Shown: positions 45,722-59,768 of the stretch, piece after piece
Numbering within the stretch: position 1 is the first letter of the stretch
Layout of the letters: the number at the start of each line of letters is the position of its first letter
Source: an uncultured Alphaproteobacteria bacterium
GTDB lineage: Bacteria > Pseudomonadota > Alphaproteobacteria > ATCC43930 > CGMCC-115725
Length of the DNA: 64,000 bases
NCBI GenBank assembly: GCA_963735445.1
Contig: CAVTLC010000048.1
Coordinates: 5,721 to 69,720 of the forward strand
Direction of reading: 5' to 3'
Made by a program: the position numbers and the translations under genes
The notes under the pieces: model-generated
What the model was told of the DNA's origin: nothing
What the model saw: the letters and a program-made list of their open reading frames with translations, nothing else
Database searches by the model: none

Positions 45722-46579
45722 CTAGGGGCGGACGACCGGGCCGCGTGAATCGGGGACGGTGGCCGCCTTCTCCTTCCAGTCCTTCGACCAAGGTGTCACC
45801 GGCTTTGGCACGGTCTTGCCATCGACCCGAATTTCGTCGACATGCTCGTTGTAGAAACAGAGATAGCCCTTGATTTTGGGACATTCCGGGATCGGGTCGG
45901 GATAGCTCCAGACGATGTCCTCATAGAGCCGGTCGCCGATCTTGGCCGAGTAATACCGCGCCTTGCCTTTGTAAGGGCAGGCCGTCGTCTTGTCGCTCGG
46001 GATCAGTAGATCCATGCGCACGTCTTCAGGCGGGATGTAGTAGCGGGTCGGCAACCGCGTTTCGAACAGAAACCGGGCGCGCCGTGTCTCGGCAAGAACT
46101 TCACCGCCGAGAATAACCTGCACCGGCCGTGAGGACTGGATCACGTCGACGCGCTTGTAAGGGTCGCGAGGGTGAACAAAGATCTCTTCATCCTCCTCGT
46201 ACCAATGATCAACTCGATCCCAGTAGAACGCGACGAAATCACCGATCTCGGCGACCTCCTCGAACGGGTCGGGATAACCCCAGACAGCGTTTTCTGAGGC
46301 CTTGTCGCCGACTTTTATCGTCCAGTATGACGCAGTCCCCTTATACGGACAGAAAGTGTGGTGGTCGGTTGGCGTCATCAGATCGAGCCGCACATCCGAC
46401 CGAGGAAAATAATACACCGGCAGGTGCCGGGTTTCGAACAGCAGACGAGCATTGGTGCTGTCGGCGATGGTTTCGCCGTTGAATGTGACCCGCACGCGAC
46501 GGGGCGAAGGCTCGAAGGTTATCTTGTAGTCGGGATTGGTCTTGAACCCGGATTCGCGCGTCTGCGGTGCGGCTGACAT
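45722..46579 (-). CDS. tandem DUF427-domain protein
   Basis: Two repeats of the pattern VRVTFNGETIADS...YYFPRSDV...FCPYKGTASYW / VILGGEVLAET...YYIPPEDV...ACPYKGKARYY, each followed by (N/D)(A/I)VWxYPDP. AGGAGG lies upstream of the ATG at 46579. Confidence 0.75.
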   Translation of the reverse strand: MSAAPQTRESGFKTNPDYKITFEPSPRRVRVTFNGETIADSTNARLLFETRHLPVYYFPRSDVRLDLMTPTDHHTFCPYKGTASYWTIKVGDKASENAVWGYPDPFEEVAEIGDFVAFYWDRVDHWYEEDEEIFVHPRDPYKRVDVIQSSRPVQVILGGEVLAETRRARFLFETRLPTRYYIPPEDVRMDLLIPSDKTTACPYKGKARYYSAKIGDRLYEDIVWSYPDPIPECPKIKGYLCFYNEHVDEIRVDGKTVPKPVTPWSKDWKEKAATVPDSRGPVVRP

Positions 46580-46697
46580 GATCGGGGCCTCCTTGTTCGC
46601 CTCGCCGGCCGAAATAGTGCGGTCGCGCAAACTTCCGCGCCGCTCTCGCCGGCCGCTCCCATTATATAAGCCGCGCTCTCGCGATGAAACCGAAGCG

Positions 46698-47189
46698 TCA
46701 GTCGGCGCCCTCGGCCGGGTCTGTCGAGTTTACACCCTCGGCTTCCGCTGCTTGTTCGATCAAATTGGCCTTCATCGCGATCATCATATCGAGAAGCAGG
46801 TCGCGGTCAGGCTCCGGGATGCCGGCAAGCGCATCTTCGCGGACCTCGGCAGCAAGCGCGAAAATCCGGTCGAGCAGTGGGTAAGCGGCTTCGGTCAGAT
46901 AAAGCAGGTGGGCGCGTCGATCCTTCGGATCGGGGCGGCGCTCGATAAGGCTGGCCGCCTGTAACCGATCGAGCAGCCGGGCTAGTGTGATCGGCTCCAA
47001 TTCCAGGATTTGCGCCAGGCTGACTTGATTGATGCCCTCCTGGCGCGCGAGGTTGGCGAGCACCGCGGCTTGCGCCCGGGTCAAGCCCAGCGAGGCGGCG
47101 CGCGCGCGCTGCTCGAACCGTTTGCGCATCAGACGCGCGACGTCGTTAAGGACAAAACCCAGGGTGCGGCTCGGGATTTCCTGGATCAT
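46698..47189 (-). CDS. MarR-family transcriptional regulator
   Basis: 163 aa. Winged-HTH region LTRAQAAVLANLARQEGINQVSLAQILELEPITLARLLDRLQAASLIERRPDPKDRR. Confidence 0.9.
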   Translation of the reverse strand: MIQEIPSRTLGFVLNDVARLMRKRFEQRARAASLGLTRAQAAVLANLARQEGINQVSLAQILELEPITLARLLDRLQAASLIERRPDPKDRRAHLLYLTEAAYPLLDRIFALAAEVREDALAGIPEPDRDLLLDMMIAMKANLIEQAAEAEGVNSTDPAEGAD

Positions 47190-47203
47190 CGCGATCCCCG
47201 CAG

Positions 47204-47537
47204 TTGATCTCGGATATTAATCACATCCTGGCCATGGGCGGTTGTTATACTGGTCTCTTAGAGTTTTCCCTTGCAGGACGTGCTGATCCCGCTGTTTTCC
47301 TGGACGTGGCGATCACGCTCTCTGAATCCGCTGATGAGCGTTATGCGTGGCCAAAACCCACCGTGGGACGTGCACTGCCTCTACAATCAGGAGACTGAGG
47401 AGCAGCCGCAGCTCTACTTCTCGCACCAGCTCAAGATCGGCACCGACCCCTATGAGCTGGCGCGCGAGGTTCGGGCCGGTCTCGATCAGACCAATTCGCA
47501 AGGGAGCCCATATCCCCCGCGCAACAGCCAACGCTAA
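47204..47537 (+). pseudogene. possible small hypothetical gene divergent from marR, split by one frameshift
   Basis: ORFs 47204..47398 and 47271..47537 both read protein-like (..ILAMGGCYTGLLEF..ERYAWPKP / PPWDVHCLYNQETEEQPQLYFSHQLKIGTDPYELAREVRAG). No family recognised. Confidence 0.3.
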
Positions 47538-47996
47538 CATAAAGCAGCCAGATGGCTGATGCCTGGACCGCAGACCGAAGGCAGCGGCAGCATAGGCTCG
47601 GGCTCTGGTCGATGCCGGTGGTGCAGGGGCAGACTGCACCCCGGCGCACAATCAGGCTGAACATACCTCGTATGTAAGCCGCGCGGCCGACAAGTTGCGG
47701 CGCGCCTAGCAAGCTCGGCCAGATACCGGGACTCATCAGGTCACCGTCAGCCCGCACATCATAGATGATGCCCCGGCGCGCGAAGCGGCGGCTCGAAGCG
47801 CGATCTGAGGTGACCACCAGATAGAAGTAAAAGCTTCTTCGAAGGCCGCCAACGTTGTCGAGTTGACCCGTCACTTTGTCGTGACCGGACCTTCCCTAAC
47901 GACCTGACTCGATACAAAATCTGACGCGATCGACACTCGGTCTGCATTGCACGCATACTCGTGCAATCGCTGGACTGTACGACTACGGAAGTCGAC

Positions 47997-48833
47997 ATGG
48001 GTATGCTACTGTCACAGGTAAGGCGGTATGTCGTATCTCTCGAGGTTCTCGTCTGTCCGGTCTTGGCTCTGTTGGCGTTAGGGTCATTGCTTGGCCTCGC
48101 CTCTCCGGCGCACGCCGATTACCCGGTGGCGCCCGATGTGGTCGTGTTTTGCGAGCCGACACTGCAGCACGTGGTCGCCGATATCGGGGCATTGTGGCGC
48201 GCGCGGACCGGCATCAAAGTCCGCGTCTTCACCTCGCCGACCCCGGCTTTGCTGCAGCAGATCGCGCATCATGCCCGCGATGACGTCGTTATCGGCGAGG
48301 GTGATGCGGAAGCTGATGCTGCCGCCGACCAACATCTGATCAAGAAGGAGACCGTCGAGCGCGTCTGGAGCAATCATCTCGTCGTCGCGTCGCTTTCCGG
48401 CGGCTCAGATGGTGCCGATGGTGGGTCACCCTCAGCCGACAAACTGGCAGCAGTCGCCGGCAAGGAACCGATTGCCGTTGTCGATCCGTGGGCGGCAACA
48501 GCCGGCGCCGATAGTCAAAAGGCGTTGCAATCGCTCGGCCTGTGGCAGGCGGTCAGCGCCAAGTCGATGGGCGTCGTCGGTACTGCGGACGCGGCCTACC
48601 TCTTGGCGCAGGGTAAGGTGAAGCTCGCGATTATCTATGCCACCGATGTCGCCGCCAACCCGGCATTCACGGTTGCCGAGCCCTTGCCGGCGGCGGGCTA
48701 TCCGCCAGTCGTCTATTGGGTCGCGCAGACCGAACACGCGTTGAGCCCGAATGCTTCGAAGTTTGTCACATTTTTGCGGTCCGCCGACGCGCAGCAAAGG
48801 GCCCGCGCCGACGGATTGGAGATTTTGCCGTGA
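47997..48833 (+). CDS. periplasmic substrate-binding protein, ModA (molybdate/tungstate-binding) family-like
   Basis: Signal peptide ...LLGLASPAHA. VVVFCEPTLQHVVADIGALWRARTGIKVRVFTSPTPALLQQI ... KLAIIYATDV follows the ModA fold pattern. The start is uncertain (ORF opens at 47961). Confidence 0.7.
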   Translation: MGMLLSQVRRYVVSLEVLVCPVLALLALGSLLGLASPAHADYPVAPDVVVFCEPTLQHVVADIGALWRARTGIKVRVFTSPTPALLQQIAHHARDDVVIGEGDAEADAAADQHLIKKETVERVWSNHLVVASLSGGSDGADGGSPSADKLAAVAGKEPIAVVDPWAATAGADSQKALQSLGLWQAVSAKSMGVVGTADAAYLLAQGKVKLAIIYATDVAANPAFTVAEPLPAAGYPPVVYWVAQTEHALSPNASKFVTFLRSADAQQRARADGLEILP

Positions 48834-49525
48834 CCGCTCCTGCCCAAACTCAGATCGTCTCACAGCGGAATGTGCAGCTGCATCCGCTGAGCCGCCGCAT
48901 CATGCACTGGATCAACGCTGGAGCGATCCTCGTGATGATCGGCAGCGGCTGGCGCATCTACAATTATTATCCGGCATTGCCGATCCATTTTGGCTTTCCG
49001 TTGAGCTGGACTTTAGGCGGCGATTTCCGGATCGACGAGGCAGTCAGCAACGAGGATGGTCTGGCAAACGCTCTGTTATGGCACTTCGCCGCGATGTGGG
49101 TTCTGGTATTGAATTTCCTCGCCTATGTCGTCATCGGTTTGGTTTCGGGGCATTTCCGCCGGGATTTTCTGCCGATTTCGGTGGGAGCTTTTTCTCGCGA
49201 CTTTTTTGCGGCACTGCGCGGACACCTCGGCCATCAGCTCGGCGAATACAATGCCGTGCAGAAGGTCTTTTACTGGGGTGTTCTGGCGGCCATTTTGGTT
49301 ACGATCCTCTCCGGGCTCAGTATCTGGAAGCCGGTGCAACTGCAGTGGCTGACCTGGTTGTTCGGAGGCTACGAATTTGCCCGGGTCGTGCACTTCTTTG
49401 GCATGGCGGCGATCGTCGGGTTTCTTGTCGTGCATCTGGCGCTGACGGCATTGGTGCCAAAGACTCTGGTCGCGATGGTCGTGGGTCGCGCCTCTGACAC
49501 GCCGCATCCGCGCGAGGGAGAATAG
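48830..49525 (+). CDS. membrane dihaem cytochrome b (cytochrome b561 / PhsC / Ni-Fe hydrogenase b-type family)
   Basis: The GTG at 48830 overlaps the upstream stop (GTGA). HPLSRRIMHWINAGAILVMIGSGWRIY, four TM helices with conserved His residues (HW, WHF, HFF..VVH). Confidence 0.8.
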   Translation: MTAPAQTQIVSQRNVQLHPLSRRIMHWINAGAILVMIGSGWRIYNYYPALPIHFGFPLSWTLGGDFRIDEAVSNEDGLANALLWHFAAMWVLVLNFLAYVVIGLVSGHFRRDFLPISVGAFSRDFFAALRGHLGHQLGEYNAVQKVFYWGVLAAILVTILSGLSIWKPVQLQWLTWLFGGYEFARVVHFFGMAAIVGFLVVHLALTALVPKTLVAMVVGRASDTPHPREGE

Positions 49526-49527
49526 CG

Positions 49528-50270
49528 ATGAGCCGTCTGGTCCTCGAGCGCAAACCGGTCGTGAACGCGATCGAGAGGCGAGTGTTTTTGCGCCAGACAT
49601 TAAGCCTCGGAGCGCTGACGTTGTTGACCGGTTGCGACGTATCCAATCACCGCAGCGTCCAAAATGTCCTGAAGGCGATGTCGCGGTGGAATGACCGCGC
49701 GCAGGCATTTCTGTTTAGCGATAAGAGGCTGGCGCCGACCTACTCGGAGAGCGATGTCGTTCGCGATTTCCGTTACAACGCCTTCTTCCCTGCTAGCGAT
49801 GCGCCGAAGCTTTTCTGCCGCCGATTATCGCCTCGAATTGTCCGGCCTGATTGCCGACAAGCGACCCTGGTCGGTCGAGCAGCTCTACACTCTGCCGCAA
49901 GAAAGCCAGATCACGCGCCACGTGTGCATCGAAGGGTGGAGCATGATCGGCAAGTGGAGCGGCCCGAAGCTGAGCGACTTTCTTGCAGCGGGTCGGGGCC
50001 GACCTTACCGCGAAATATGTCGGCTTTCAGTGCGCCGACGGCTATTATGGCAGTATCGACATGCCAACCGCCCTGCATCCCCAAACCATCATGGCCGTCA
50101 AATTCGCCGACGAGATACTGCCGGCTAAATACGGCTATCCGTTCAAGGTGCGCATCCCGACAAAACTCGGCTTTAAGAACCCGAAATGGGTGACGACAAT
50201 CTATGTCACCAATCGCTATCCGGGCGGGTTTTGGGAAGATCGCGGCTACAACTGGTTCAGCGGATCGTGA
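49528..50270 (+). pseudogene. molybdopterin-dependent oxidoreductase (sulfite-oxidase fold, YedY/MsrP-like), Tat-lipoprotein signal, two frameshifts
   Basis: ERRVFLRQTLSLGALTLLTGC (twin-Arg plus lipobox). HVCIEGWSMIGKWSGPKLSDFL. YVGFQCADGYYGSIDM...GYPFKVRIPTKLGFKNPKWVT. Frame changes at a T-run near 49812 and near 49985. Confidence 0.8.
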
Positions 50271-51082
50271 AGCCGAACGGTATTTCGCGTAAGGGCGGCT
50301 GCGCGATCGCGGTAATGGCCAAGGCTCCGGTGCCTGGCCAGGTCAAGACCCGGCTCGTCCCACCATTGACGCCAAGCATCGCCGCCGCGCTGAGTGCGGC
50401 GTTTCTGCGCGACGTCACCCGAAACATCACGCTCGCCGCTCGCGGCGCGAAAATATCCGGCTATGTCGCCTATGCACCGGCTGGCTCCGAAGCGTTGTTT
50501 GACGGAATGCTTGCCCAGGACACCCGTTTTGTCCTCGCGGACGGGGCAGCGGTAAGCGCGCCGCGTGTTCAGGGCTTTGGTCGGTGTTTGTTGCACGCAG
50601 CACAATCCTTGTTCGCCGATGGTCATCATTCGGTTTGCCTGTTGAACTCGGATAGTCCGAATTTGCCGACATCTCTGTTGTCGGAAGCGGCTCAGGTGCT
50701 TGCATTCGCGGGAGATCGCGTCGTCCTCGGTCCGGCCGAGGATGGCGGCTATTACCTGCTCGGGATGAAAGCGCCGCACCTGCACCTGTTTGAAGACATC
50801 GCCTGGAGCACGAGCAAGGTCGCCGCGCAGACCCGCGAACGGGCGGGAGCGCTCGGCCTGCCGGTCGTCGAGCTCGCCCCCTGGTATGATGTCGACGACG
50901 CGGTGGCGTTGCGTCGACTATGCCACGAACTGAACGCGCCATCGCGAGCCGGCCTCGATCCGTTTCGCGCGCCGGCGACGGCGGAATGCGTCGAGCGGCT
51001 GCGAATTCGCGAGCTGCTGACGGCGGAGCCAGGCGACAAATCGAGCGCATCCTGTCGGATCGAGGGAGCCAGTATTGCCTGA
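50267..51082 (+). CDS. DUF2064 (TIGR04282-type, CofC/MobA-like nucleotidyltransferase fold) protein
   Basis: The GTG at 50267 overlaps the upstream stop (GTGA). AVMAKAPVPGQVKTRL, LLNSDSPNLP, VLGPAEDGGYYLLG, IAWSTSKV, WYDVDD. Confidence 0.8.
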   Translation: MKPNGISRKGGCAIAVMAKAPVPGQVKTRLVPPLTPSIAAALSAAFLRDVTRNITLAARGAKISGYVAYAPAGSEALFDGMLAQDTRFVLADGAAVSAPRVQGFGRCLLHAAQSLFADGHHSVCLLNSDSPNLPTSLLSEAAQVLAFAGDRVVLGPAEDGGYYLLGMKAPHLHLFEDIAWSTSKVAAQTRERAGALGLPVVELAPWYDVDDAVALRRLCHELNAPSRAGLDPFRAPATAECVERLRIRELLTAEPGDKSSASCRIEGASIA

Positions 51083-52127
51083 GATCACACCAATCGTGGC
51101 CCGCCGCTATTTCGAGTTAGTAGACGAAAAGCGTTCGCCGATCGCCGAGGCGCCGCCGGTCTGCGTCTACCTCGAGGTCACCAACCGCTGCAATTTATTG
51201 TGCGAGACCTGCCCGCGCACATTCGAGGAATTGGAGCCGCCGGCGGATATGAGCTGGGAGCTCTTCACGTCGATCGTCGACCAGCTACCCGGCCTCACCC
51301 GCGCAGTCCTGCACGGCGTCGGCGAGCCGATGATGGTCAAAAATTTGCCGCGCATGATCCGCTATCTGAAACAGCGCGGTGTTTACGTTCTGTTTAACAC
51401 CAATGGCACATTGCTGGCGCCGCGCAAGCGTGGCGAGATCATCGATACCGGTCTCGACGAGTTGCGGGTGTCGCTCGATGCTGCCGAGGCGCAAAGCTTC
51501 TTCAAGGTCCGGGGCAAGAATTTCTTCGACCGCATTGTCCGCAACGTCGGCGAGTTCATAGCACTGCAGAAAGAGATCGGAGCCTCGACCCCGCGGGTTT
51601 CATTGTGGCTGACCGGCCTCAAGGAAACGGTAGAGCAACTGCCGGATTTTGTCAGGCTCGCGGCTCGGATCGGGGTTGGTGAAGTCTATTTACAGCGCCT
51701 GGTCTTTGACGATCTCGGCCGCGGGCTGGCGCGCGAAGAGTCGTCGTTGTTCGCCAAAACCCAGCGCGAGGAAGAGGAGGCAATCGCCGCGGCACAGGCG
51801 CTCGGACGCGAGCTTGGCGTCACGATCGATGCCTCGGGCGCGACCGAGCCCGGCGCCAGTCTGAAGCGCGCAGAGGAAAACGCGCCATGGTCGGGCTGTC
51901 GCCGCCCGTGGTCGCTGATGTACTTCACCGCACATGGCCGCGCGTTGCCATGCTGCATTGCGCCGTTTTCCGCGCGCGGCTACGAGACCTACACCCTCGG
52001 CAATGCAACCCAAGAGACCTTGCGCGAGATCTGGAACGGCAGCGCGTACCAGGATTTTCGCGCCGCTTTGGTGGGCGATACGCCGCCGAAACCGTGCCAG
52101 AATTGCGGTTTGCGATGGAGCCTGTAG
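51075..52127 (+). CDS. radical SAM enzyme with a C-terminal SPASM-type Cys-rich domain
   Basis: CX3CX2C in VTNRCNLLCETCPR. GEPMM (GGE-like) and NTNGTLL. C-terminal CRRPW...LPCCIAPF...CQNCG. TTG start with upstream GGGAG, overlapping the upstream gene by 8 nt. Confidence 0.85.
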   Translation: MPEITPIVARRYFELVDEKRSPIAEAPPVCVYLEVTNRCNLLCETCPRTFEELEPPADMSWELFTSIVDQLPGLTRAVLHGVGEPMMVKNLPRMIRYLKQRGVYVLFNTNGTLLAPRKRGEIIDTGLDELRVSLDAAEAQSFFKVRGKNFFDRIVRNVGEFIALQKEIGASTPRVSLWLTGLKETVEQLPDFVRLAARIGVGEVYLQRLVFDDLGRGLAREESSLFAKTQREEEEAIAAAQALGRELGVTIDASGATEPGASLKRAEENAPWSGCRRPWSLMYFTAHGRALPCCIAPFSARGYETYTLGNATQETLREIWNGSAYQDFRAALVGDTPPKPCQNCGLRWSL

Positions 52128-52855
52128 CCGCTGCTGTCGTCATCCCGACCTTCAACGAAGCTCAATCAATCAAAGGAGTCGTTGCGGAGATCCCGCGCGA
52201 GTTGGCGAGCGAGATCATCGTCGTCGATGGCGGCAGCGATGACGGCACCCAATCAATAGCGGCGAGCGCCGGCGCACGTGTCATCTCGGTGGGCGCTCGG
52301 GGATATGGCCGCGCCTGCATGGCCGGCGTCGCGGCAGCATCCTCCGAATGCGGCATCATCGTGTTTATGGATGGCGATGGCGCCGATCGCGGTGATCTGA
52401 TGATGCGGCTCGTCGAGCCGATCCGGCGCGGCGAATATGATTTCGTTATCGCTTCGCGCGCCCGCGGCGAACGCGAGCCAGGCGCCATGAGCTGGCACCA
52501 GCTATTGGCCGGTTATCTCGCCGGGCTCGGCACCAAGGCGCTATACGGCGTGCGCTACACCGATATGTGCGCTTATCGCGCGATCCGCCGCGACTGTCTC
52601 GAACGCCTGGGTATGCGCGAAATGACCTACGGCTGGAACATCGAGATGCAGATGCGAGCGGCGCGCGCCGGATTGCGTATTCTCGAACTGCCGATGCCAT
52701 ATCGCCGGCGCAGCGGCGGCGCCTCTAAGGTTGCGGGCTCATTGCGCGGTTCGCTGCGAGCTGCGGTGCGGATCGTCGCTACTTTTGCTCGAGTCGCCAC
52801 GGCCCCAAGCGATAATGATCAATTGCGGTCGCGCACACCGTCCGCTGCTCGATAA
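52115..52855 (+). CDS. GT2 glycosyltransferase (soluble DPM1/Ppm1-like polyprenyl-phosphate sugar synthase type)
   Basis: VVIPTFNEAQSI, IIVVDGGSDDGT, VFMDGDGADRGD, YGWNIEMQ. The ATG at 52115 overlaps the rSAM gene by 13 nt. Confidence 0.85.
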   Translation: MEPVAAAVVIPTFNEAQSIKGVVAEIPRELASEIIVVDGGSDDGTQSIAASAGARVISVGARGYGRACMAGVAAASSECGIIVFMDGDGADRGDLMMRLVEPIRRGEYDFVIASRARGEREPGAMSWHQLLAGYLAGLGTKALYGVRYTDMCAYRAIRRDCLERLGMREMTYGWNIEMQMRAARAGLRILELPMPYRRRSGGASKVAGSLRGSLRAAVRIVATFARVATAPSDNDQLRSRTPSAAR

Positions 52856-54812
52856 ATCCGCCAGCGCCCTGCCCTCTCTTCGACCAGGCGGAAATAGCCG
52901 CTCATTGCGAAGACGTCACGGCGCCATGCGCCGTCGCTCGGGGTCACCACAACAACACGGCAATCGAAGCGAGCAACAAGATCCCTGACTTCCTCCGGCG
53001 AGGCGTCGCCGGCGAATATGCGTTTGAACAAGGCGCTGATCCGGTCGATCTCGGGACCCGGCAATGGCACAAAGGCGCGCGCCAAATTCCAGCCGGCGTA
53101 GCAGGAGCGGCGATCCGCCAGTAATGCCCAGGAAAGATTGACGGGCCAGCGCACGCTGTCGGCGAGGAATGAGGGATTGTTGGCGACGCGCTCTGCTGGT
53201 GCAGTGTGGCGGCGGACGGCGGCCCAGAGTTCCGGAGCGCCGGCAAAGATTGGCGCTGACGGCGAGTGCAGGCCGGTCGCATTCTCTTGGATTATCCGCA
53301 GACCGCCGGGAATACCAAGTACCCAGAATGCGACGCCTGCGATGGCGAGGCTGCGCCTGGTCGGAATCCAGCACGCGAGGCCCGCGGCGGCGAAGATCGT
53401 CAGGACGAGGATACCGGGCAGCACGCCCCGCCAGCCGAGATCATTGTTCGCAATTGTGCTGGCGAAGAGCCAGGGAACCGCGAAGCTCGCAAGAGCGAGC
53501 AGGGCAAGCCCGACAGCAAATCTCTGTTCGGCGAGCGCCCTTCCCTTCTCGGCAATTCTTTCGGAAATGGCCCAGAGCCCCGGTGAAATAAATTGCCGGA
53601 AACTCGATCACCGTAAGGATCAGCCAAAAGGCAAGCAGGTTCAGATATGGCCGGACCGCTGCCGGAATGATCGGACCCAGCACCGCGAATGGGTGAAAGG
53701 CAATCGGAGCCCCCGCCCCCCGGGCCGCGGTTGCGAAAAACTGGTCGCGCAAGAAAGGAAACGCGATTGCCACCGCAAGAACGACCGCCAGCGTCCCCTT
53801 AAAGAGGAGGTCGACCCGAGCTCGACCGTCTTCGGCCATGACCAGGAGAGCGATGGTAATCGGCAGCGCCGCCGCGGCAAAGATGACGCCGCCCACCCAG
53901 GCAGAGCTTTCGAACGCAGCGGCTGCGACGACCGCCAGCAGCGGCGCGATCAGCCAATCGCGTGAGACGGCTAGTCGGGACAAGAGTAGCACCGCCACCA
54001 CGACGCAGCCTGCCGAAGCCAAGTGCTGTGGCGCCCAGCTCGCCTGAAATATCCAGCTTTCCGGCCATTGAGTTTGGGCCAGCACGCGGTCGAGGACGGT
54101 GGCGGGAAGTGCCCAGCCGAGCGCGGGTTTCAGCGATGCGGAGAGGCTGAGCAACACCACCAAGAATGCCGCGATTGTCCGTCCTGCGAACCAGACCGCG
54201 AGCCCGATCATCAGGCACAGCGAGGCGAAAGCGGTGAACCAGGTCAGCGCGATATCGGCTTCCCACCCGCTGGCGCCAAACAATAGTGGCCGGGATCGCA
54301 GCGCTGAAGTGCCACAGGTAGTAGTAAACGAGGCGCGGCCCACTGCCGGCAAAAAACGGATTGCCCGGTGGTAGTCCCAAGCGGATGATGTCGTCGATAA
54401 TGGCCGCTTTCGAGTGGTCGAACATCGCTTCGCTGAGAACTATTCCCCCGGCGCCGAATTTCGGCCAAACCGCAAGCGCCGGTACGACGGCGAGTAATGC
54501 CGCAGCGGCGAGGACCAACACCGAAACACCAACCGGACGGGGTTCCACCACTGGCGGCCGCTGCCGCCGAGATACCGCGAGGCCTCCAAGGACCGCAGCG
54601 CCGGAAAGCATCGCCACGGTGGCGCGCGTAAAGCTGGTCGCTGTCAGGATCGGCAACGCCAGTGCATTAAAGACGGCCCATCCCGCGGCTGGCGCCAGCA
54701 CCAGAGCCACGACGCGAGGCGCAGCGATGCGGCGCATTACCGCCCATCCCACGCAAAAGCTGATCACCAGCTCCGCAACAGCGCAGAGCAACACAACAGG
54801 AAAGGATGGCAT
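52819..54812 (-). pseudogene. large polytopic membrane protein, GT-C-like putative glycosyltransferase, two frameshifts
   Basis: Three ORF pieces (53799..54812, 53441..54352, 52819..53424 plus upstream) join into about 660 aa with more than 12 TM segments, a PPGNPFFAG...LVYYYLWHF loop motif and a soluble C-terminal domain of about 130 aa. Shifts lie near 54285 and at a C4/G4 run at 53578-53581. The 3' end overlaps the GT2 gene by 37 nt. Confidence 0.65.

Positions 54813-55097: not shown

Positions 55098-59768
<4,671 letters not shown>

Follow-up and report, generated by a model that had tools for sequence, protein, structure and literature searches.

A candidate envelope system that joins a molybdoenzyme and haem-b pair to a sugar pathway in Alphaproteobacteria

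The window analysed here is a stretch of 64,000 nt from the genome of an uncultured alphaproteobacterium (GenBank assembly GCA_963735445.1, contig CAVTLC010000048.1, positions 5,721 to 69,720), and window coordinates are used throughout unless another source is named. Its block of interest comprises six + strand genes at 47997-52855, together with a convergent membrane protein gene. The six encode a ModA-like solute-binding protein (SBP), a membrane cytochrome b561, a molybdenum (Mo) enzyme, a DUF2064 protein, a radical S-adenosylmethionine (rSAM) enzyme with a SPASM domain, and a family 2 glycosyltransferase (GT2). Judged from gene content and order, the block appears to be a conserved seven-gene envelope system, consisting of a six-gene operon and a gene for a GT-C-fold glycosyltransferase that converges on it. 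Many soil Alphaproteobacteria have the same pairing, and on that ground the Mo enzyme and its haem-b partner very likely work on the same molecule as the sugar pathway. The role that we infer to fit best is to tailor an envelope glycoconjugate by redox chemistry or to repair it, and to this explanation as a whole we assign a probability of about 0.45.

Layout and conservation of the block

The six + strand genes have essentially no space between them. The SBP gene (47997-48833) and the cytochrome b gene (48830-49525) meet in a GTGA at 48830-48833, where the GTG start of the second shares bases with the TGA stop of the first (48831-48833). The cytochrome b stop, TAG at 49523-49525, is followed after 2 nt by the ATG (49528) of the Mo-enzyme gene (49528-50270). 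Another GTGA, at 50267-50270, contains both the GTG that opens the DUF2064 frame (50267-51082) and the TGA (50268-50270) of the last Mo-enzyme frame. The rSAM gene (51075-52127) starts with a TTG at 51075, overlapping the DUF2064 stop by 8 nt, and the GT2 gene (52115-52855) starts with an ATG at 52115, overlapping the rSAM stop by 13 nt.

A previous sequence-only reading of this DNA had described the first three junctions and the near-zero intergenic space from 47997 to 52855. All are present as described, with the last two junctions overlapping as well. That reading requires amendment in two places. It treated the Mo oxidoreductase as a single gene, which holds for the junctions at both ends but not for the reading frame, since the assembly spreads it over three frames. 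It also ended the block with the six + strand genes, which are indeed there, but left out the GT-C-like membrane gene of the same conserved block.

The six genes probably form one tightly packed, translationally coupled operon. Upstream of the first gene a consensus scan finds a weak promoter-like hexamer pair on the + strand (TCGACA-18-CATACT at 47930-47959, 9/12 positions). Terminator-like sites of any strength were looked for between the genes of the block, and none was seen. Rfam at its gathering score has no match in the whole window, and at E ≤ 1 no family, the Moco riboswitch included, matches the region of the 770-bp leader (47100-48100).

If the redox genes and the DUF2064 genes are functionally linked, as the sequence-only reading proposed, they should be adjacent elsewhere. 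Many genomes have them as neighbours; these genomes belong to several families, and the gene orders number at least six. In a sample of 200 genomes of the window's family, essentially all Mo-enzyme orthologs of at least 63% identity, from at least eight genera, have DUF2064 directly downstream. We also collected 80 rSAM-centred loci with 10-kb flanks and combined them with further loci; 86 have enough flank to be scored, and the window is counted among the linked ones. A cytochrome b/Mo pair lies within 7 kb of rSAM in 58 of these 86. The linked loci come from genomes labelled Stellaceae, Acetobacteraceae (Rhodopila, Acidisphaera, Lichenicoccus and Acidisoma) and Enterovirga.

Most relatives have a GT87 (PimE-like) GT-C gene between DUF2064 and rSAM, and we use the term cassette for the sugar-pathway genes with or without it. 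The window type (order a) is SBP-cytb-Mo-DUF2064-rSAM-GT2 facing the 665-aa membrane gene. Order b, SBP-cytb-Mo-DUF2064-GT87-rSAM-GT2, is found at 18 or more loci in Acetobacteraceae, and order c is the same without SBP (cytb-Mo-DUF2064-GT87-rSAM-GT2). The redox pair can also be embedded in the cassette: locus L037 (order d) reads rSAM-GT2-cytb-Mo-DUF2064-GT87, and the pair overlaps its neighbouring genes at either end. It can stand at the far end, as in L133 (order e, DUF2064-GT87-rSAM-GT2-cytb-Mo), or belong to a divergent layout, as in L118 and L078 (order f). Order g, cytb-Mo-small exported protein-(aminotransferase)-DUF2064 and onward, is that of L104 and of L144, the latter from the cultured Acidisoma cellulosilyticum HW T5.17, in which GT87-rSAM-GT2 come after DUF2064.

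The boundary between the two modules is tight in relatives too. Where the Mo gene stops and DUF2064 starts, the sequence in close relatives is TGATG, TAATG or GTGA, and in more distant ones DUF2064 starts 30-40 nt downstream of the Mo stop, after a GGAG-like site. From the Mo stop to the conserved DUF2064 core there are only 20-43 nt in most loci examined, which leaves no room for a separate DUF2064 promoter. The start codon proposed for DUF2064 agrees with its homologs, which start at the Mo stop or a few codons from it.

On the rSAM tree, presence or absence of a linked cytochrome b/Mo pair requires about 10 state changes. The Mo tree sets linked enzymes in clades of their own, only two changes away from stand-alone cytochrome b/Mo pairs; the linked and stand-alone enzymes in it were drawn from different searches. 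One linked Mo clade is only ∼50% identical to the window enzyme and varies in its position relative to the cassette, and one whole clade of linked pairs has no SBP. Each module also occurs alone, which makes the redox pair an accessory of the cassette; that the pair is nonetheless kept with the cassette through repeated rearrangement argues for a functional link. The link that had been proposed between the redox and the glycosylation/radical-SAM modules is thus supported by synteny and by the separate linked Mo clades, and we hold a conserved operon with such a link to be highly probable.

Several loci depart from these layouts. In the ∼50%-identity clade a small exported protein of 157-183 aa, PRC-barrel-like by eye, is encoded between the Mo gene and DUF2064 (L144:7247-7720 and L104:7362-7913); the next gene in L104 is for a class I/II-type aminotransferase. 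Three loci of the window-type clade (L099, L101 and L104) have no adjacent SBP-cytb-Mo set of the ∼80% type and carry a ∼51%-type cytochrome b/Mo pair 0.7-1.8 kb upstream of DUF2064; here a paralogous pair has replaced the redox genes in place. Four loci from Rhodopila and Acetobacteraceae metagenome-assembled genomes (MAGs; L130, L147, L132 and L154) have partial or very divergent Mo remnants upstream of DUF2064, with 31-47% identity and a very long branch, and neither cytochrome b nor SBP; these may reflect loss in progress or assembly frame errors. Another four (L095, L100, L105 and L152) have 1.3-5.7 kb of extra DNA between rSAM and GT2, or between GT2 and the membrane gene, which may be insertion elements inside the operon. 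Upstream of the block, and divergent from it, the window carries genes for a MarR regulator and a tandem DUF427 protein (45722-47189, − strand). They adjoin the block only in one other genome (G019, locus L050) and not in the nearest relative (G197), and probably lie outside the unit.

The encoded proteins and the interrupted molybdoenzyme gene

Profile searches agree with the family assignments made for the six + strand genes from sequence inspection: SBP_bac_11/ModA-like, Ni_hydr_CYTB, Oxidored_molyb, DUF2064/TIGR04282, Radical_SAM plus SPASM, and Glycos_transf_2. The Mo enzyme has the sulfite oxidase (SUOX) fold and is a YedY/MsrP-like lipoprotein with a predicted twin-arginine translocation (Tat) signal; PF00174 matches the second and third of its pieces. 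Among solved structures the best match is E. coli YedY (1XDQ), whose Cys102 aligns with the Mo-ligand Cys of the enzyme (residue number of the ligand in E. coli YedY/MsrP from PMC11194511). Across 71 homologs, and across clades, the RR motif, the lipobox L-x-G-C-D and the C-x-E-G-W-S loop are conserved. The N-terminus reads ERRVFLRQ, the twin-arginine motif, and then LLTGC, the lipobox, with Asp at +2. In E. coli, Asp at +2 retains lipoproteins in the inner membrane. The enzyme is therefore probably exported folded, with its cofactor, and anchored at the periplasmic face of the inner membrane.

The Cys within a C-V/I-E-A/G-W-S loop and the predicted Tat signal are those of the MsrP/YedY type. 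The score against the MsrP equivalog NF003767 is nevertheless below its cut-off of 207 bits, at 76.2 for the intact ortholog and 29-36 for the window pieces. A canonical MsrP (421 bits) is encoded elsewhere in the genome, which makes the operon enzyme an extra, specialised paralogue. Two other identities were considered and rejected. Sulfite oxidases have a Cys-Ala-Gly-Asn-Arg-Arg loop with anion-binding arginines. The window enzyme is not a sulfite dehydrogenase: it scores 32 bits against 420 for SoxC and 28 against 600 for SorA, matches PF00174 only, has 246 aa and no dimerisation domain, and its C-I-E-G-W-S active-site loop is not Arg-rich. In PruR pterin-binding proteins, non-enzymatic sensor partners of DcpA, the Mo-ligand Cys is changed to Trp (PMC11194511); this Cys is invariant in the homologs of the window enzyme, which rules out a PruR-type sensor.

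The cytochrome b561 (PF01292, Ni_hydr_CYTB, 72.6 bits) precedes the Mo gene at every intact locus examined. Of 69 homologs, at least 95% keep each of His18, 26, 85, 135, 188 and 202, a set that includes the four expected for two bis-His haems. By these residues the protein is probably di-haem, and it is the likely partner of the Mo enzyme at the quinone pool. It matches PF01292 only and so is not the MsrQ/YedZ partner characteristic of MsrPQ.

The SBP is exported and is a divergent paralogue of the canonical ModA of this genome (PF13531, 108 bits). It passes TIGR01256 (ModA; 69.2 bits, cut-off 62.5) and is far under the ModA equivalog NF007958 (56 against 253); the solved structures nearest to it are all ModA proteins (E = 7e-14). 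Canonical ModA (177 bits) and ModB are encoded on other contigs of the genome, and the block has no permease or ATPase gene (modB/modC). The A-A-S-L and V-Y-G-S-D segments of ModA, which we take to be its anion-binding positions, are poorly kept at the aligned positions of the SBP. A conserved Cys (V-F-C-E-P-T-L) replaces the anion-binding Ser region, and the Tyr of V-Y-G-S-D varies among SBP homologs. These differences suggest that the ligand may be other than molybdate. The SBP accompanies only cassette-linked Mo clades, and may supply Mo or bind an anionic ligand.

The DUF2064 protein (PF09837, 88 bits) has a GT-A or nucleotidyltransferase-like fold and passes TIGR04282 (146.6 bits, cut-off 134). 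It resembles PDB 3CGX, a putative nucleotide-diphospho-sugar transferase (E = 8e-18), and weakly matches the CofC guanylyltransferase (TIGR03552, E = 4e-4); the fold presumably resembles that of MobA as well. The rSAM enzyme (PF04055 and PF13186) is below cut-off for every NCBIfam model that it matches, the best being TIGR04317 (137 against 380 bits, in the N-terminal half only). Its solved relatives are PqqE, BtrN, GDGT-MAS and MoaA. It is the most conserved cassette gene, with at least 452 relatives confirmed among pattern matches in genome contigs. The GT2 (PF00535, 87 bits) is of the polyprenyl-phosphate sugar synthase type (Dpm1/AglJ/PpgS-like); its matches to AglJ (122 bits), dolichyl-phosphate hexose transferase (68) and PpgS (58) are all below cut-off.

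The convergent gene (52819-54812, − strand) encodes a membrane protein of ∼665 aa with a C-terminal soluble domain. It is one gene, carried by relatives as a single open reading frame (ORF) of 659-673 aa and present in the window as three (52819-53424, 53441-54352 and 53799-54812). The protein has no Pfam or NCBIfam match. Foldseek relates its AlphaFold2 model (pLDDT 64, pTM 0.71) to AftA, PglB, STT3, DPY19 and Pmt4 with probability 1.00, and the TM-scores to GT-C structures are low, at 0.32-0.43. The model thus supports a GT-C assignment at the level of fold rather than of family.

The Mo protein is spread over three frames (49528 to ∼49815, ∼49814 to 49978, and 49983 to 50270) by two +1 shifts, and ATG 49528 and stop 50268-50270 are in different frames. 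The first break is at TTTT (49813-49816, + strand), where removing one T restores ...APKLSAADY.... The second is at TTT (49979-49981, + strand), where the window has GACTTTCTTG and relatives have GAC-TTCTTG (...DFLQRVGADL...). Alignment to the nearest relative, L091 (93% DNA identity), places exactly two single extra bases within the Mo gene. The 246-aa ORF is intact in seven relatives of the same genus. A programmed frameshift is ruled out, as these seven and L091 read the gene in one frame.

Other genes of this genome are broken in a similar way. The convergent membrane gene has uncompensated single extra bases relative to L091 at ∼53579 and ∼54284. The gene for the glutamate synthase large subunit, gltB (55098-59490, + strand), is split into ORFs of 884 and 583 aa by one extra base at ∼57726 that is absent from the nearest relative. 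Elsewhere in the genome the essential rpoC is in two parts, broken at profile position 693/694 (G000 contig C22:40948-44950, − strand). Among the relatives, which are Microflora Danica (MFD) MAGs, several have split genes as well. We favour assembly indel errors for the two Mo-gene breaks because rpoC, gltB and the membrane gene are likewise broken and the Mo gene of relatives is intact, and we are strongly inclined to accept them as such.

A true pseudogene, which would make the redox link vestigial in this genome, is improbable. In its favour, the two frameshifts are at most 170 nt apart, the Rhodopila MAGs L130 and L147 have mere Mo remnants upstream of DUF2064, and rpoB, dnaE, gyrA and secA are intact. 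The last point, that four of the five long essential genes checked are unbroken, means that errors are not uniformly dense and makes a real pseudogene conceivable; indel errors seem to be unevenly spread in this MAG. The single extra bases in gltB and the GT-C gene and the similar split of an essential gene speak for assembly error instead, as do pieces that are 96% identical to the intact L091 ortholog, with no stop mutations seen and both breaks at T runs. Apparent pseudogenes in this MAG should be treated with caution, as mostly single-base assembly insertions.

Proposed mechanism and its alternatives

The mechanism that we propose begins in the cytoplasm, where the nucleotidyltransferase-like DUF2064 protein and the rSAM enzyme would activate and tailor an unusual sugar. 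The Dpm1-like GT2 would load this sugar on polyprenyl phosphate. After flipping, a GT-C enzyme (the 665-aa protein here, the GT87 enzyme in most relatives) would transfer it, on the periplasmic side, to an acceptor in the envelope. There the lipid-anchored Mo enzyme, exchanging electrons with the quinol/quinone pool through the di-haem cytochrome b, would act by two-electron oxygen-atom transfer, its target being a redox-sensitive group in the sugar or in the lipid-linked donor. The likeliest reaction would be reduction of a sulfoxide-type oxide, for which the methylthioxylose and methylsulfoxyxylose of mycobacterial lipoarabinomannan provide a parallel. At this level of biochemical detail the proposal, built on analogy, is tentative and falls somewhat short of probable. 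An extension of it is doubtful: acid-soil Alphaproteobacteria might use an rSAM-made envelope sugar, with a thioether or another oxidisable heteroatom, as a sacrificial antioxidant, regenerated in the periplasm by a dedicated lipid-anchored Mo reductase that quinol feeds through the di-haem cytochrome b. If true, this reductase would do for a glycan what MsrPQ does for methionine in redox cycling, and no earlier Mo enzyme devoted to a glycoconjugate would be known.

Several points weigh against a shared pathway. The DUF2064-GT87-rSAM-GT2 cassette lacks cytochrome b/Mo in about one third of loci, and families f210, f29 and f153 carry the cassette and never the pair. Conversely, many alphaproteobacterial families have cytochrome b/Mo pairs without the cassette. 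A phylum-wide sample of 400 genomes has an rSAM ortholog in only two further genomes, neither of them with cytochrome b/Mo. Many linked loci are related by descent, so that the counts overstate independence. The Mo enzyme is far below the MsrP cut-off (76 against 207) and its partner is PF01292 rather than MsrQ, and the SBP has no place in the proposed model. The support is genomic, and the sulfur proposed for the sugar comes from analogy.

Occurrence of each module alone in many genomes would also be expected if the two were adjacent merely as co-regulated envelope-protection functions, against oxidative or acid stress, with no shared substrate. The Mo enzyme would then be a general periplasmic reductase, as its YedY/MsrP likeness allows. 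We consider this unlikely: the link outlasts at least six rearranged orders, the L037 pair is embedded in the cassette with overlapping stops and starts, linked Mo enzymes fall in their own clades, and the genome already has a canonical MsrP. The restriction of the ModA-like SBP to cassette-linked Mo clades, together with a DUF2064 protein that passes TIGR04282, a family named at NCBI for arsenosugar synthesis, could point instead to capture and reduction of an inorganic oxyanion (of S, Se or As) by the SBP, cytochrome b and Mo enzyme. The rSAM, DUF2064 and GT2 enzymes would then build an organo-element, arsenosugar-like sugar. There is little probability in this, given a SPASM-type rSAM with ArsS outside its best 25 matches, a GT2 scoring 50 against 182 for TIGR04283, a YedY-type C-I-E-G-W-S Mo loop, a whole clade of linked cytochrome b/Mo pairs without SBP, and poor conservation in the SBP of the ModA anion-binding positions.

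The rSAM/SPASM and DUF2064 proteins might also mature the Mo enzyme, by modifying its cofactor or the protein post-translationally, with no sugar made. The best NCBIfam matches of the rSAM (TIGR04317 and TIGR04311) are annotated as putative metalloenzyme maturases, and DUF2064 has its weak match to CofC. Those rSAM matches are far below cut-off, however, both proteins always occur with GT2 and a GT-C enzyme, and the cassette exists without the Mo enzyme in about one third of loci and in whole families. A role for the rSAM as Mo-enzyme maturase is rejected on this last ground, and the explanation as a whole is very improbable indeed.

We return to a Mo/haem pair and a sugar pathway that would act on one envelope glycoconjugate. 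We know of no sulfite-oxidase-fold Mo enzyme that acts on a glycan or glycolipid, nor of an experimentally shown function for DUF2064. A literature search found no paper on DUF2064, Rv0540 or the present gene combination; TIGR04282 came up only incidentally, in two papers, under titles that show no link to the present system. With an MsrP-like reductase and its haem-b membrane partner joined to a radical SAM enzyme and a lipid-linked glycosylation pair, the recurring operon offers hypotheses on each of them that can be tested. It also suggests that sugars with redox activity, of which mycobacterial methylthioxylose is one, may occur more widely than thought. A cultured and harmless carrier exists in Acidisoma cellulosilyticum HW T5.17 (locus L144).

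Comparison with known systems

The nearest parallel for the proposed sugar chemistry is the methylthioxylose (MTX) capping of Mycobacterium tuberculosis. There mtxS (Rv0539) makes the MTX lipid donor (PMC12088412; PMC8780516) and MtxT (Rv0541c) transfers MTX to lipoarabinomannan (PMC8780516), which bears both MTX and its sulfoxide, methylsulfoxyxylose (PMC8531672). A passage in PMC6400530, citing Stalford 2009, has the methylsulfinyl sugar reducible by MsrA. In both systems a GT2 attaches, or in ours would attach, an unusual sugar (a pentose in MTX) to polyprenyl phosphate for GT-C transfer outside the membrane, and the MTX sugar is a thioether that occurs as a sulfoxide and is enzymatically reducible. 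The MTX product is a 5-deoxy-5-methylthio-pentofuranose. The likeness is at family level only: our GT2 resembles polyprenyl-phosphate sugar synthases, and the transferase has a GT-C fold or belongs to GT87. To our knowledge the mycobacterial locus has no radical SAM enzyme and no Mo reductase. Two further steps are reportedly required in the MTX pathway, one by a nucleotidyltransferase and the other an epimerisation at C-3 (Angala et al. 2017); by analogy, DUF2064 and rSAM could perform them here. The window's genome encodes a methylthioadenosine phosphorylase (311 bits), which is compatible with an MTX-like pathway and not discriminating.

The arsenosugar triad (TIGR04282, TIGR04283 and ArsS, TIGR04167) resembles the cassette in having an above-cut-off DUF2064 protein next to a radical SAM enzyme and a GT2. 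The window differs in its SPASM-type rSAM and in the addition of a GT-C enzyme and a periplasmic redox pair. ArsS is absent from the best 25 of the 44 NCBIfam matches of the rSAM, and the GT2 falls as far short of TIGR04283 as noted above (50 against 182). With ModA the SBP shares the fold family; it differs in standing without adjacent modBC and in reading C-E-P-T, with its conserved Cys, in the Ser region.

MsrQ has a ferric-reductase-like domain, PF01794. E. coli MsrPQ (YedYZ) shares with the redox pair a Tat-exported SUOX-fold enzyme, the C-[VI]-E-[AG]-W-S loop and a haem-b membrane partner that links it to quinols. The window enzyme, in contrast, is a 246-aa protein, predicted to be lipid-anchored where MsrP is soluble, with a PF01292 partner and an operon that it shares with sugar-pathway genes. 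The GtrA/GtrB/GtrX, ArnC/ArnT and Ppm1/PimE glycosylation systems share with the block a Dpm1-like GT2 and a GT-C transferase. The block adds DUF2064, rSAM and the Mo/haem pair, and no GtrA-type flippase gene was seen. The window system is best filed as a combination of lipid-linked periplasmic glycosylation with an MsrPQ-like, quinol-driven Mo reductase.

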